In this document: one piece after another, positions 52,694 to 64,000 of the stretch
How positions within the stretch are numbered: position 1 is the first letter of the stretch
How the letters are laid out: each line of letters opens with the position of its first letter
DNA from: Escherichia coli
GTDB taxonomy: Bacteria > Pseudomonadota > Gammaproteobacteria > Enterobacterales > Enterobacteriaceae
DNA length: 64,000 nt
NCBI RefSeq assembly: GCF_044324875.1
Contig: NZ_CP172185.1
Reading direction: 5' to 3' (one strand)
Position numbers and translations under genes: made by a program
The notes under the pieces: generated by a model
What the model was told of the DNA's origin: nothing
What the model saw: only the letters and a program-made list of their open reading frames with translations
Database searches by the model: none

Positions 52694-53269
52694 TCACCAT
52701 CCAACCCTGTACGCCAGAATGGTTTCACTGTCACTCAGTTCTGCTATTGCCTTTTTCATCTCCCTTTGCCTTATATGTATTTCAAGGCCTTTCCTGAACA
52801 TCGCTTTACCAGCAGCATCACTCAGGGATATCAGTTCATCTGCCGTCATCGGTACATCATTATTCTCTGCGTCCGTCCAGAAAAATCCTTCCGGCAACAC
52901 ACCGCCTCTGGCCGCTGATGCCGACATTCCAAGACGTGTCATGGTTTCCTTTCCATAATCCCATTTCCGTCCTCTGTGCTCAAAAACATACCCTGACGCC
53001 TCCATCGCATCACGCCAGGCATTTATCTCCGCGTTTTTCATCCTGCGTGCTTCTTCCACAGCCATATCATCATTTGCCCGGTACTCACCCACCGGCCCTG
53101 CATCACCTCTTATGCAGGCTTCAAATATTTCACGACCGTAAGACTCAGGATCATCCGCACTTGCTGTAAATACACATTCTGTTTCCGCGTCTGAAAACTT
53201 CACTATACAGTTTATGGTCGTATGACCCCTGTCAGCCCACACTGGTGACGTGATTTTATCGACCTTCAT
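52694..53269 (-). CDS. tfa: Phage tail fiber assembly protein (Tfa)
   Basis: 191-aa ORF 14 nt downstream of the tail fiber gene. Confidence 0.8.
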   Translation of the reverse strand: MKVDKITSPVWADRGHTTINCIVKFSDAETECVFTASADDPESYGREIFEACIRGDAGPVGEYRANDDMAVEEARRMKNAEINAWRDAMEASGYVFEHRGRKWDYGKETMTRLGMSASAARGGVLPEGFFWTDAENNDVPMTADELISLSDAAGKAMFRKGLEIHIRQREMKKAIAELSDSETILAYRVGW

Positions 53270-54843
53270 TCATTTCTCCCCTGTCACCGTATTCTCTGAA
53301 ACAGGCCCCAAATCGTCCCAATGATATTATTCACTGTCATGTTAGTTGTGCATAACATCCATGTACCAAGCATAGGATCGCCAAATAAAAAGCGGATATC
53401 TGTAAGTTTATCCGATGACGACGACACAATAACGGCCTGTCTGATACGATACCCGGGTATTTCACGGGTATTTGTTACCTCATGATTTCGTTCTATGATC
53501 CCCAGAACATAAGACCCCACGGAATAAACACTTCCGACGCTCGCTGGCCGCCCCGCTTCTCCTCTTGGCCCCTGTGGACCTGCCGGACCGCGTTCACCTG
53601 TATACCCTCTTGGCCCCTGTAGACCTGTCTGCCCGCGTTCACCTGTATCGCCCTTTGGCCCCTGTGGACCTGCCGGACCGCGTGCACCTGTTTCACCTTT
53701 TGGTCCCTGTGGACCACGCTCCCCCTGGGCTCCCAGCTCTTTCCATTCAGACCAGGGGCCATTACCGGTAAAATTACCAGTAACAGTTCTTACGAACTTT
53801 CGTGGTGGGTTCCAGGTTGTATATTCATGCTGGCAATATCCCCATGCACCAACTCTTACCTGAAGATAACCCGCTCTCTGAATCGGATAATTATTTTCTC
53901 GTGTAGCCCCACTGTCTGATGGCTGATAATAATCACCCTGATCGGTCACTCGTCCCAGTCGGTTCAGATCACCATTCAGCAGTTGTCCACGGGCTGACTC
54001 TCCTCTTGGTCCCTGAGGACCTTCCGGACCACGTGCACCTGTTTCGCCCTTTGCTCCCTGTGGACCTGTCGGACCGCGTTCACCTGTTTCACCTTTTGGT
54101 CCCTGTGGTCCTGCCGGGCCGCGTTCACCTGTTTCACCCTTTGCTCCCTGTGGACCTTCCGGGCCACGTTCACCTGTATCCCCCTTTGGTCCCTGTGGAC
54201 CTGCCGGGCCGCGTTCACCTGTTTCACCTTTTGGTCCCTGTGGACCTCCCGGATCTCCTTTATCCCCCTTAGGGCCTTTTTCTCCTCGCTCACCCTTTTC
54301 TCCCTTCAGACCCTGAGGGCCTTCCGGACCACGTGCACCTGTTTCGCCCTTTGCTCCCTGTGGACCTGCCGGGCCGCGTTCACCTGTTTCACCTTTTGCT
54401 CCCTGTGGACCTTCCGGACCACGTGCACCTGTTTCACCTTTTGGTCCCTGTGGACCTGCCGGGCCGCGTTCACCTGTATCGCCCTTTGGTCCCTGTGGAC
54501 CTGCCGGACCGCGTTCACCTGTTTCACCTTTTGGTCCCTGTGGTCCTGCCGGGCCACGTGCTCCTGTTTCACCTTTTGGCCCCTGTGGCCCGGTAATGCC
54601 TCTTTCACCACGAGCGCCGGTATCCCCTTTCTCTCCTCGTGGTCCCCGGGCAGATGCTGCTCGTTTCCGGGCTTCCTCCGCCTCAGATGCCGCGGACTCT
54701 GCTCTGTGCAGTATGGACTGCACCACAGCCTCCAGCTCTGACAACGCCTTCGGATAATAAGGAGCATCTTCCATCTCCATCAGAAATTTATTCAGTGTTC
54801 CCGGTGAAGAATCGTAAGCGACTCGTCAGAACCGTATTGATAT

Positions 54844-61399: not shown

Positions 61400-61740
61400 T
61401 GTCTGATCTGCGCTATCTGTCGGCTGTTCTCCTCCGTGCTCCTGCTTACTGTCTGCCGGATTTCGCTGCCCATCCTGTCAACTTTTCTGTCAACTTCCGC
61501 AATGGCCATTGACTGTTCACCGCTCTTTTTCGCCACAACAGTACTTATTTGCGCACTTTTATCATCAACATACTGCCTGACCTGCGCTATCTGTCGGCTG
61601 TTCTCCTCCGTGCTCCTGCTCACTGTCTGCCGGATTTCACTGCTCACGCTGTCAACTTTCCTGTCGACTTTCGCAATGGCCAGCGACTGTTCACCGCTCT
61701 TTTTCGCCACCAGTTCCGTTATGCTGTTTTCAGACGCCGT
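61400..61740 (-). repeat. 174-bp tandem duplication, 2 copies, inside J (58-aa coiled-coil units)
   Basis: CTGCGCTATCTGTCGGCTGTTCTCCTCCGTGCTCCTGCT… occurs at about 61408 and 61582; encodes (S/T)[10 protein letters not shown](L/M)AIA(K/E)VDRKVD…[19 protein letters not shown](V/I)RQYVDDK. Confidence 0.8.
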
Positions 61741-64000
61741 GATTTTTTTCGTCACCCCGGCGATATCACGCTCCGCACGCTGCCTCACATCTTTCTCCAG
61801 CTGCGTCATTTCGCGGTTAATCTCATTCTCCAGTTGCTCAACTTCAGTGCGCCGTGCAGAGGCATCAATGCGTTCATTGATCTCCCGTCCCAGATGCGTT
61901 TTATTTATCGCCCCCCTGAAAAAATTAAGGTAACCGGCAGGATCATTACTCGCCCGACCGACTGCCTCCACGAATGCCGATTTACCGACAGTGTTAACAC
62001 TGCGGATATAAAAGTAATAATCATGGCCAGGTTTAATATTCTGGCCGGAGACAAGCCACTGACTTCCGGTACCAAGATAACGGGCTGTGGTTTCAACCTG
62101 CCTGATATCGGTAATCCGCTTTTCCGAGAACCAGAACTCAAACTGCACCGTCGGATCATAAACGGCAAGATGCGGCGTGGCGGTTATCTGAAAATAGCCC
62201 GGCGTCAGCTCAATCCGCGACGGCGCTGCCGGTGCGGCAATCCGGAACGATACCGACGCCGGGTCTCCCTGCTGCCCCCGGGCATTTACTGCCCGGACTG
62301 TCAGCCTGTAGTTCCCCGGCGCCAGCTGCCTGAAGCGGTATGTGGTTTCCGTCGTCCGGGCCGTGCTGACCAGCCGCTCACTGCCGTCATCCGCTGCCAC
62401 GGTCAGGCGAAGCATGAAACTCACGCCTTTCACCACCTTCGGCGTGTCCCAGCGGGCCAGTACCTGATACTCCCCGCTGTCTGCGGTGACTTCGACAGTC
62501 AGGTGCTGCACTGCTGGCGGCGTGACACCATTCACCGTGCCGCTCTGGTCACCGTCAAAGTGTGCCCCGTTATCCACGATGCCCTCTTTTTCCGGTACAT
62601 GCTGCACGGCAGTGATGGCATACGTGCCGTCGTCGTTCTCACGGATACTCACGCAGCGGAACAGGCGCTGGCGCAGCGTCGGCAGCTTCAGCCCCCACAC
62701 GCTGTACTCGGCAACGCCGTCAGGAACCCGGCTCACTTTTACCTTCACGCCGTCGGTGACGGACTGAACCTCCACGCTGACCGGATTGCCACTTCCGTCA
62801 ACCAGGCTTATCAGCGTGGTACCGGAGGATGGCAGCGTGATTTCACGGTCGAGCGTCAGCGTCCGGGTCTGGCTGTTCACCGCCAGCACACGACCACCGG
62901 TGCTGATACCGGCATAGTCATCATCACAGATTTCAATGACATCCCCCGGTACATGGCGAAGCCCTTCAGCACCCACGCTGAAATCCACGGTCTGCGTCTC
63001 CAGCAGTTCTGTTTTAATCAGCCACAGCCCGGCGCGGTGTGCCTGCCCCCGGCTGGTACAGCCAAAGGCATCCATCTTCGTGACGTTACGACCGTAACGG
63101 GCAATGGCCTGCGTGTCCTCCACAAGCTCTGTCGCCGTCTCCTGGCCGTTATCCGGGTCACTCCAGTTCACCTCAACGGCATTATGGCGGTCCTTCAGGG
63201 CGCTGAAGCTGTAGCGGAACGGCGCGCCATCATCCGGCATCACCACATTACTGCGGTTATAGGTCCACACCTTATCCGACGGCCGGTCCTGCACGAACGT
63301 CAGCGTCTGCCCGTTCCATACCGGCATACAGCGCATCGCCGAGCAGAAATCACTGAGCACATCCCACGCCTTACGCTGCCTGGTCAGCCAGGCATTACAG
63401 GTGATGCGCGGCTCCGTGCCACCAGAGCCGTCCGGCACCGACTGGTCGCAGTACTGGCCGATAACATACAGCGCCCATTTGTCCACATCCGCTGCGCCAA
63501 CACGTTTCCCCATGCCGTAGCGCGGGTGGGTCAGCATATCCCACAGACACCAGGCCGGGTTATCGCTGTATGCCGGTTTAAACGTTCCGTCCCAGATACC
63601 GCTGTATTGCCGCGTCTGCGGGTTATAGTTCGACGGCACCTGCAGAATGCGCCCGCGAAGATGATAATTACGGCTCACCTGCTGGCTGCCGAACTGCTCC
63701 GAATCCACCTGCACACCGACCAGTGCCGTGTTCGGGTAGCACTGTTTCACATCGATGATTTCGGTGTATGACGACCAGAGCGTTTTGTTCTGCAGCTGGT
63801 CTGTGGTGCTGTCCGGCGTCATCCTGCGCATCCGGATACTGAACGGGCGCGGCGGCAGGTTACCCACCACCACCGAGGCCAGATACTGCGAGGTGGTTTT
63901 GCCCTTAATGGTGATGTCTTTTTCCGTTAACCAGCGACCGTTACGCTGTATCTGAACCAGCAGGCGGACTTCCGACGGATTCCGGTCCCCCTTTGAGGTG

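Follow-up and report, generated by a model that had tools for sequence, protein, structure and literature searches.

Interruption of the tail genes J and stf by two insertion sequences at the probable right-hand end of a lambda-like prophage in Escherichia coli

Introduction

A described counterpart of the locus reported here is the J-lom-stf-tfa segment of bacteriophage lambda. Disruption of related prophages by insertion sequences (IS) has a precedent in E. coli O157 Sakai, whose lambdoid prophages are disabled by IS elements, e.g. nu1 of prophage Sp4 by the IS66-family element ISEc8, and whose sibling prophages can complement morphogenetic defects (PMC2669165). A further parallel is provided by E. 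coli ECOR-9, for which PMC7649339, citing Sandt et al. (2002), describes prophage-borne eib adhesin genes together with an IbrAB island.

Here we analyse a 64,000-nt stretch of E. coli contig NZ_CP172185.1 (assembly GCF_044324875.1), hereafter the window, with the region from 52694 to 64000 as the object of study; other loci used for comparison carry L numbers. Read along the minus strand, the genes follow the order J, stf, a DUF4376 gene, a YadA-like adhesin gene and a sigma-like gene. The region is very probably the right-hand end of a lambda-like prophage that has undergone two independent simple transpositions, one of an ISSso4-like IS21-family element into J and one of ISCro1 into stf. 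Strain, IS elements and target genes all differ from those of the Sakai prophage pool. We regard the present locus as an ordinary, recent-looking case of textbook prophage decay, of a kind already known and involving no new type of element. Its importance beyond annotation is accordingly small, and lies in an exact record of how one lambdoid tail module became disabled.

Results and Discussion

The J gene and its IS21-family insertion

The 5′ part of J (60922..64000, minus strand) comprises residues 125-1148 out of some 1302, the gene continuing past the end of the window, and the 3′ part (57819..58282, minus strand) consists of the last 154 codons and the stop, corresponding to the C-terminal receptor-binding region. 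They are separated by a 2639-bp element on the minus strand (58283..60921), and the raw sequence has the direct repeat CTCGT on either side of it, at 58278..58282 and at 60922..60926. Two intact genes, istA (59154-60689, 511 aa) and istB (58382-59137, 251 aa), are present within the element, and their products score above the NCBIfam cut-offs of the respective profiles (IstA: NF033546, 284.7 bits, cut-off 160; IstB: NF038214, 257.8 bits, cut-off 200). Elements of the IS21 family feature an istA transposase gene followed by istB, which encodes an AAA+ helper, as well as TG...CA ends and a target duplication of 4-8 bp. The ends of the element in J read TGCGTATT... and ...TTTTGCA, giving TG...CA termini, and repeated GATGCCAA..TGATCG motifs are found at both, with five GATGCCAA-type repeats at 60792-60902 and inverted copies at 58300-58318.

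The limits of the element were fixed independently by its copies in L001, L005 and L006, which are exactly 2639 bp long and whose homology to the window ends at 58283 and 60921. The copy in the window is 99.96% identical to that of L006, the IstB of which is assigned to the “ISSso4 family” in RefSeq. Size, istA/istB, TG...CA ends, repeated terminal motifs and a short duplication are all shared with ISSso4-type IS21 elements, the name itself being taken from this RefSeq-annotated copy. The duplication in J is of 5 bp, as against 6 bp common to the flanks of two other copies, where the sixth shared base may be a chance identity. At fixed IS ends, identical 5-bp flanks are expected by chance in 1 of 1,024 cases.

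When the element is excised together with one copy of CTCGT, a reading frame of 1178 aa is obtained that is still open where the window stops; the junction falls after visible residue 1024. The reconstructed protein reaches 2041.3 bits with the NCBIfam profile lambda_TipJ (cut-off 1950), even without residues 1-124, and its alignment to an intact J of 1302 aa, from J residue 125 onwards, is free of gaps (98.6% identity). Compared to lambda J, identity is 92.8% over residues 125-836, i.e. the N-terminal two thirds, and falls to 53.7% over residues 841-1131, in the diverged C-terminal domain; the protein also differs from lambda J by an insertion of 175 aa, within which lies a 58-aa tandem repeat. 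The alignment to lambda is nevertheless continuous over the junction (NVTINE/NC versus NVTIAENC, the slash marking the junction).

The ISSso4-like element entered J after codon 1148 out of some 1302, with duplication of CTCGT, and thereby severed the receptor-binding region from the rest of the protein. The truncated J stops after 16 residues encoded by the IS. Particles carrying it would presumably be non-infective, unless another lambdoid prophage resident in the same cell provides J.

The stf gene and its ISCro1 insertion

The 5′ part of stf (57513..57760, minus strand) starts with an ATG at 57760, and its present product of 83 aa is terminated by a TAA contributed by the IS end. The 3′ part (53284..54813, minus strand), which runs from codon 80 to the stop, contains collagen-like repeats of 15 aa (45 nt). 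The intervening element of 2699 bp (54814..57512, minus strand) is bordered in the raw sequence by two copies of GAAGAATC, at 54806..54813 and 57513..57520. Its three genes, tnpA (56782-57459), tnpB (56435-56782) and tnpC (54844-56415), are intact and co-directional with stf, and the three proteins match the NCBIfam profiles NF038385 (295.8 bits, cut-off 150), NF033819 (128.9 bits, cut-off 50) and NF033517 (477.9 bits, cut-off 180). The IS66 family is characterised by tnpA, tnpB and tnpC, with a DDE-type TnpC, by GTAA termini and by an 8-bp target duplication. The element in stf starts with GTAAGCG and finishes with CGGTTAC; its imperfect terminal inverted repeats begin with GTAA, the two ends being GTAAGCGACTCG... 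and GTAACCGGCTCA....

The copy in L004 matches this sequence at 100% identity over 2700 bp, and that in L006 at 99.96%; both are annotated as ISCro1 in RefSeq, a name first given in Citrobacter rodentium. Copies in L002-L006 and L010 have common termini, each with an 8-bp duplication of its own, and their homology to the window ends at 54814 and 57512. The five uninterrupted ones (L002-L006) measure exactly 2699 bp, and that of L010 holds a nested IS. The element itself presents no difference from ISCro1, and the insertion site alone is specific to this locus. Identical 8-bp flanks at fixed IS ends have a chance probability of 1/65,536.

Removal of the element and one copy of GAAGAATC restores a Stf of 589 aa that starts at the ATG of position 57760 and has the junction within codon 80. 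This protein aligns without gaps to an intact 589-aa Stf (96.8% identity) and matches PHROG 366 (5.6e-116). The N-terminal domain is homologous to that of lambda, residues 3-130 being 50.8% identical to lambda orf-401 across the junction (REDS/SPGTLN versus YEDSQPGTLN), and the Pfam domain phage_tail_N (PF08400) is recorded on the exact 83-aa product. The shaft, unlike that of lambda Stf, is made of collagen-like GXY repeats, and Stf gave no blastp match to lambda orf-314. Gene order is as in lambda, except that lom is missing here and that the tfa position is occupied by the DUF4376 gene.

ISCro1 entered stf at codon 80 and duplicated GAAGAATC. The tail-attachment N-domain, of which the 83-aa stub is what persists, was thereby parted from the collagen-like shaft and tip. 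Since laboratory lambda PaPa is without functional Stf, loss of stf by itself would probably not be lethal to the phage.

A first-pass annotation of the region had proposed both insertions, with the same element limits and duplications, and both proved exact to the base. Its further proposals, namely that excision of each IS with one repeat copy yields continuous frames on re-translation and that the genes were whole immediately before insertion, are likewise borne out, for J from residue 125 onwards, by the two reconstructions and by their gapless alignment to intact homologues, as is the comparison with lambda it called for, in which J and Stf align straight over both junctions. Both IS elements are multicopy in E. 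coli, and an assembler might in principle have misplaced them. Such an artefact is scarcely credible, however, considering that the duplications are perfect and as long as those at the other copies examined, that each IS has two precise junctions, and that the stf junction has been assembled independently in other genomes.

A composite transposon made of both IS elements could be dismissed, as the two come from different families and each is flanked by a separate duplication. A promoter and terminator scan of positions 52000-58400 gave nothing relevant above the expectation from shuffled sequence, and no feature was detected within 52694-64000 by Rfam and tRNA scans.

Empty and filled sites in other genomes

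Uninterrupted alleles, which the first-pass annotation had suggested seeking in other strains, were found for both genes. A 600-bp query spanning the empty J site is 100% identical in three complete genomes, and the empty stf site is 99.3% identical in LH50-c and Ch1. These alleles have a single copy of each target, and locus alignments accordingly overlap at the J target by 6 nt (the 5-bp duplication and a T shared by coincidence) and at the stf target by 8 nt. Filled sites were searched among 5,426 complete E. coli genomes using one end of the IS21 element and both ends of ISCro1, and none of these three junctions was found in any of them. The junction patterns had no match among IMG/VR viral contigs, the exact junction is absent from GTDB representative genomes, and among complete RefSeq E. 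coli genomes coverage of positions 50000-64000 stays below 80%. Look-ups of three exact proteins, namely the 498-aa Stf fragment, the 513-aa adhesin and a 135-aa J fragment, were likewise unsuccessful.

Both insertions look young: the duplications are perfect, the transposase genes are intact, the elements are nearly identical to copies elsewhere, and alleles without them still circulate. The rest of the island, in contrast, contains frameshifted IS fragments. The lack of filled junctions in the complete genomes and the presence of empty sites fit recent insertion, and agree with the earlier proposal that J and stf were inactivated recently relative to the other debris.

A small number of draft assemblies share the stf::ISCro1 junction with the source genome. 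A truncated Stf identical to the 83-aa product, with the junction between the stf N-terminal part and the right end of ISCro1, was detected in the drafts L020, L021, L022 and L026, whose J is of a different type (1169 aa, accompanied by three small ORFs). Presence of this junction next to a different J suggests that the stf insertion may be older and may have been passed among lambdoid prophages by homologous recombination, leaving the J insertion alone as recent. We consider this the less likely history: the IS copy is 100% identical to copies elsewhere, with intact genes and a perfect duplication, neither ISCro1 junction is found in any complete genome, and the 83-aa product is confined to 18 contigs in a large collection.

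A further pattern is seen at stf. In L019, an IS66-family element 98% identical to ISCro1 lies at the same base position of stf in opposite orientation, which indicates an independent event. In L010, ISCro1 is inserted 20 bp from the stf target with its own duplication GGAGATAT, and strains TO124 (L003) and TB354 (L004) have ISCro1 elsewhere in tail-fibre genes. One may speculate that the first ~250 bp of stf constitute a preferred target for elements of the IS66/ISCro1 type, or that disruption of stf is selected for in lysogens, in which case loss of the side tail fibre would be a recurrent and directed step of prophage domestication rather than random decay. Either variant appears unlikely, since the seven ISCro1 duplications examined display no consensus and the site is filled, in either orientation, in none of the 5,426 complete genomes; moreover, given the great size of the draft collection and the multicopy nature of stf, the hits could be coincidental. 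Independent, repeated hits of IS66-family elements at the same stf position are nonetheless the sole point of some wider interest at this locus. The clean empty and filled alleles may, in addition, be of use as lineage markers.

The DUF4376 gene, the adhesin and the decay of the tail module

The gene downstream of stf (52694..53269, minus strand) encodes 191 aa and had been reported in the first-pass annotation as an intact tfa. That it is intact was confirmed, but its identity as tfa was not. Its only Pfam domain is DUF4376, whereas the Tfa-type domain in Pfam is Caudo_TAP; no blastp match to lambda orf-194 (Tfa) was obtained at E <= 1e-3, and the PDB yielded no relative. The protein does match PHROG 1141 (“tail fiber protein”), and its exact sequence recurs in 605 blocks of the collection, always immediately downstream of stf. 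By these comparisons, the name tfa reflects gene position alone, and the product is a DUF4376 protein that lacks similarity to lambda Tfa.

Further downstream lie an intact gene for a YadA-like trimeric autotransporter of 513 aa (50373..51914, minus strand) and a gene for a sigma-factor-like helix-turn-helix protein of 151 aa (49856..50311, minus strand), which always accompanies it. This pair is standard cargo at the right end of such prophages. The first-pass annotation had the tail genes being dismantled while an adjacent adhesin was retained; the dismantling is supported by the 48 genomes described below, but the adhesin is evidently the prophage's own cargo and not a neighbour, which, with the DUF4376 gene, makes two labels corrected. 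A sequence search of the PDB linked the adhesin to the YadA anchor and to stalk fragments of the SadA type, and to no EibD chain at E <= 0.001. An assignment to Eib by this route is unsupported, as the YadA anchor and generic stalk motifs alone were matched.

The tail module is situated at the edge of a mosaic island that carries an IbrA/IbrB-like gene pair as well as sit and aerobactin genes. The IbrB-like and PAPS-reductase (IbrA-like) genes lie at 16926-18781 of the same 64-kb window. A YadA-type autotransporter at the end of a lambdoid prophage and an IbrAB-like pair are likewise combined in ECOR-9, as described in PMC7649339; compared to the eib adhesins named there, the protein encoded here matches the YadA anchor and generic stalk motifs, and no EibD chain.

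The same gene order is found in Ch1, within an otherwise complete prophage adjoining ompW/trp. In 48 complete genomes, on the other hand, the YadA-like and sigma-like genes are still present in the same island, but of tfa just the final 80 bp are left, directly next to an IS fragment, indicating that decay is complete there. The module of the window, hit by two IS elements, would then represent an intermediate of a decay series whose end point, reached in other strains, is the loss of every tail gene by deletion while the adhesin cargo stays in place. If so, three stages are at hand, namely the intact prophage of Ch1, the IS-hit module and the 80-bp stub, with cargo kept while virion genes are lost.

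Alternatively, the tail module could have been brought beside the island by recombination between near-identical copies of the adhesin/sigma cargo, and the prophage may be intact past position 64000. Genomes such as CP033635.1 do contain the cargo module more than once (L009, L010, L017), and a comparison of SNPs in bins over the 51.3-52.8 kb segment revealed a mosaic in every locus compared, and so favoured neither an ancestral arrangement nor recombination. We hold this origin to be unlikely all the same: the 80-bp tfa stub beside the IS fragment in the 48 genomes implies that tail genes formerly stood at the island, and a second, independent assembly (L011) has its tail module joined through the cargo to the same island.

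Two insertion sequences in the tail genes J and stf

The side tail fibre gene stf is interrupted by a 2699 bp IS66-family element, ISCro1 (54814-57512), which starts with GTAAGCG, ends with CGGTTAC and is flanked by GAAGAATC at both 54806-54813 and 57513-57520. The tail tip gene J carries a 2639 bp ISSso4-like IS21 element (58283-60921), starting with TG and ending with CA, between copies of CTCGT at 58278-58282 and 60922-60926. Comparison with independent copies from further E. coli records defines where both elements end. ISCro1 measures exactly 2699 bp in five loci (L002-L006), and a sixth copy (L010), interrupted by a nested IS, shares its ends; each copy has its own 8-bp duplication, and window homology ends at 54814 and 57512. 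For the IS21 element, L001, L005 and L006 each contain a copy of precisely 2639 bp, with homology ending at 58283 and 60921. The coordinates and duplications claimed in the first-pass annotation are thus exact, by raw sequence as well as by these copies. At fixed ends, identical flanks would be expected by chance with a frequency of 1/65,536 (8 bp) and 1/1,024 (5 bp).

The ISCro1 proteins all score above the NCBIfam cut-offs for IS66 TnpA, TnpB and TnpC (3/3), as do the two proteins of the second element for IS21 IstA and IstB, and full length is retained in 5/5 IS genes. RefSeq applies the label ISCro1 to copies 99.96-100% identical to the IS66 element and calls IstB of the IS21 copies “ISSso4 family”; repeated terminal motifs typical of the IS21 family are also present. 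Both elements are co-oriented with the tail genes. The two are found about 1 kb or less apart in several plasmid and chromosomal settings that are unrelated to one another (8013-13712 of pFDN4_1, L005; 6001-11679 of L006; 13848-19523 of L001), which may simply reflect IS-rich regions.

Open reading frames on the minus strand of 52694-64000 comprise a 191-aa frame at the “tfa” position (52694-53269), a 498-aa stf 3′ fragment (53284-54780), the three ISCro1 genes (523, 115 and 225 aa; 54844-57459), an 83-aa stf 5′ fragment (57509-57760), a 135-aa J 3′ fragment (57819-58226), two overlapping ORFs of the IS21 element (58382-60800) and a 1000-aa ORF at the 5′ part of J (60871-63873), whose frame is open up to the window end. 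The 58 bp between J and stf (57761-57818) are without lom; an Ail/Lom gene occupies this position in some sibling prophages (L007, L008, L014).

Reconstruction of J and Stf

Excision of each element with one repeat copy, followed by re-translation, gives the continuous frames previously claimed, and alignments with lambda J and Stf run through both junctions. Reconstructed J is an open frame of 1178 aa to the window edge; the window covers J from residue 125 on, codons 1-124 and the remaining prophage lying beyond it. The product reaches 2041 bits against NCBIfam lambda_TipJ (cut-off 1950), and its gapless alignment with the intact 1302-aa J of L019 (residues 125-1302) shows 98.6% identity. 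Compared with lambda J, it is 92.8% identical over residues 1-712 (lambda J 125-836) and 53.7% over residues 888-1177 (lambda J 841-1131), with continuity across the IS21 junction (NVTINE/NC vs NVTIAENC, slash at the junction). Unlike lambda J, it contains an extra 175-aa insertion with a 58-aa (174-nt) tandem repeat (61385-61536 and 61559-61710). The repeat count is two here but three in L012, whose J has 1370 aa, and thus varies within this tail-tip protein. The IS21 element follows codon 1148 of J (about 1302 in all), and present-day J stops 16 IS-encoded residues past the junction. Since the receptor-binding part of lambda J is its C-terminal region, J without its last 154 residues should, by analogy, yield non-infective particles.

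Reconstructed Stf has 589 aa from the ATG at 57760 and aligns gaplessly, end to end, with the intact 589-aa Stf of L011 at 96.8% identity; residues 3-130, spanning the junction, are 50.8% identical to lambda orf-401 (REDS/SPGTLN vs YEDSQPGTLN). ISCro1 lies at codon 80, and present-day Stf is an 83-aa stub with a TAA stop that comes from the IS terminus. Lambda PaPa is viable without functional Stf, and by the same token the stf insertion alone would not be lethal. The stf shaft (53468-54687) contains two blocks of 45-nt (15-aa) collagen-like GXY repeats, and Stf length varies from 556 to 676 aa among homologues by repeat number.

Age and recurrence of the insertions

A 600-bp query for the empty J site matches three complete E. 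coli genomes (LH50-c, NRZ14408, LT599825.1) at 100% identity and Ch1 at 99.8%, and the empty stf site is matched in a single piece at 99.3% in LH50-c and Ch1. Among the loci compared, the overlap of the flanking alignments is exactly 8 nt for stf; for J it is 6 nt, made up of the 5-bp duplication and a further T that matches by coincidence. The three filled junctions queried (J/IS21 left end, stf 3′/ISCro1 left end and ISCro1 right end/stf 5′) occur in 0 of 5,426 complete E. coli genomes. This absence, together with intact transposase genes and near-identity to other copies, supports recent insertion of both elements. In keeping with the proposal that the tail genes were inactivated recently relative to the surrounding debris, most ISs in the collinear island of strain LR-31 are, by contrast, frameshifted or partial.

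Exactly this 83-aa truncated Stf occurs in 18 recorded contigs. Four loci (L020, L021, L022, L026) show the same IS end against the same stf base as in the window (target 57513-57520), together with another type of J region, which has 1169 aa and three additional small ORFs. Such same-orientation junctions in prophages differing in J type may reflect recombinational spread of the stf insertion. It is also possible that the stf 5′ target is a hot spot, or mildly preferred, for IS66-family elements. In L019 (10232-10260), an IS66-family element 98% identical to ISCro1 lies at the same base in opposite orientation and must therefore represent an independent event, and in L010 (4300-4420 and 8320-8400) an ISCro1 copy located 20 bp upstream is flanked by a separate duplication, GGAGATAT. 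However, no consensus emerges from the seven ISCro1 duplications examined, the stf site is filled, in either orientation, in none of the complete genomes, and neither junction is present in IMG/VR.

Proposed decay of the tail module and retention of the cargo

The exact 191-aa “tfa” sequence is found in hundreds of assemblies, always directly 3′ of stf, and the gene is therefore intact, as had been stated, but it is not Tfa-like: Pfam identifies DUF4376 only, blastp detects no similarity to lambda Tfa, and the protein has no relative among solved structures, so that the name reflects position only. Just outside its stop codon, the plus strand has a strong terminator-like hairpin with a T-run behind it (52653-52680); its orientation is opposed to that of the tail operon, and L017, the island version, conserves it.

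A YadA-like gene (513 aa) and a 151-aa sigma-like gene downstream are the usual right-end cargo of this prophage type. In Ch1, the order J-stf-DUF4376-YadA-like-sigma-like-DinI ends an otherwise complete lambdoid prophage adjoining ompW/trp. Forty-eight complete E. coli genomes (e.g. NZ_CP033635.1, NZ_AP027520.1; L017, L018) share a mosaic island that is collinear with positions 1-52773 of the window and contains an IbrB-like/PAPS-reductase gene pair, sodC, sitABCD, iucABCD-iutA and an MFS transporter; the adhesin differs from the CP033635.1 allele by 7 substitutions. In these 48 genomes the adhesin and sigma-like genes are kept and the DUF4376 gene is reduced to its last 80 bp, abutting an IS fragment, which indicates that the tail genes were deleted. 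In the independent assembly L011, a tail module is joined to the same island and has another IS inside. Taken with the 48 genomes, this makes plausible a decay series in which an intact prophage would have passed through an IS-hit tail module to loss of the tail genes with the cargo kept. Alternatively, recombination between multicopy cargo modules may have placed the tail module beside the island; SNP-bin analysis does not discriminate between these scenarios. The view that the tail is dismantled while the adhesin is retained fits the 48 genomes, although the adhesin is a regular part of the prophage rather than a neighbour.

Overall, the observation is confirmed exactly and its interpretation supported with minor corrections. 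The phenomenon is well understood, involves known elements and is not novel; the results can help annotation and serve as a lineage marker. Disruption of nu1 by ISEc8 in prophage Sp4 of O157 Sakai is a precedent for IS66-family disruption of a lambdoid prophage gene, and in multi-lysogenic E. coli sibling prophages can complement such defects (PMC2669165).

Other features of the window

The ParB-like “IbrB-like” gene (16926-17570, minus strand) and the PAPS-reductase-like (IbrA-like) gene (17555-18781, minus strand) share the window with the prophage-borne YadA-type adhesin (50373-51914). The ibrAB genes are reported to activate prophage eib adhesin genes; comparison of the adhesin with EibD structures gave no match. 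Gathering-level Rfam matches at 6001-6143, 29191-29312 and 2995-3111 (minus strand) and 23420-23506 (plus strand) comprise two sRNAs, isrN and STnc490, together with an IS3-element frameshift pseudoknot (ALIL) and a domain of a group II intron, the last adjoining a 507-aa ORF (21893-23416) that is probably its reverse transcriptase.
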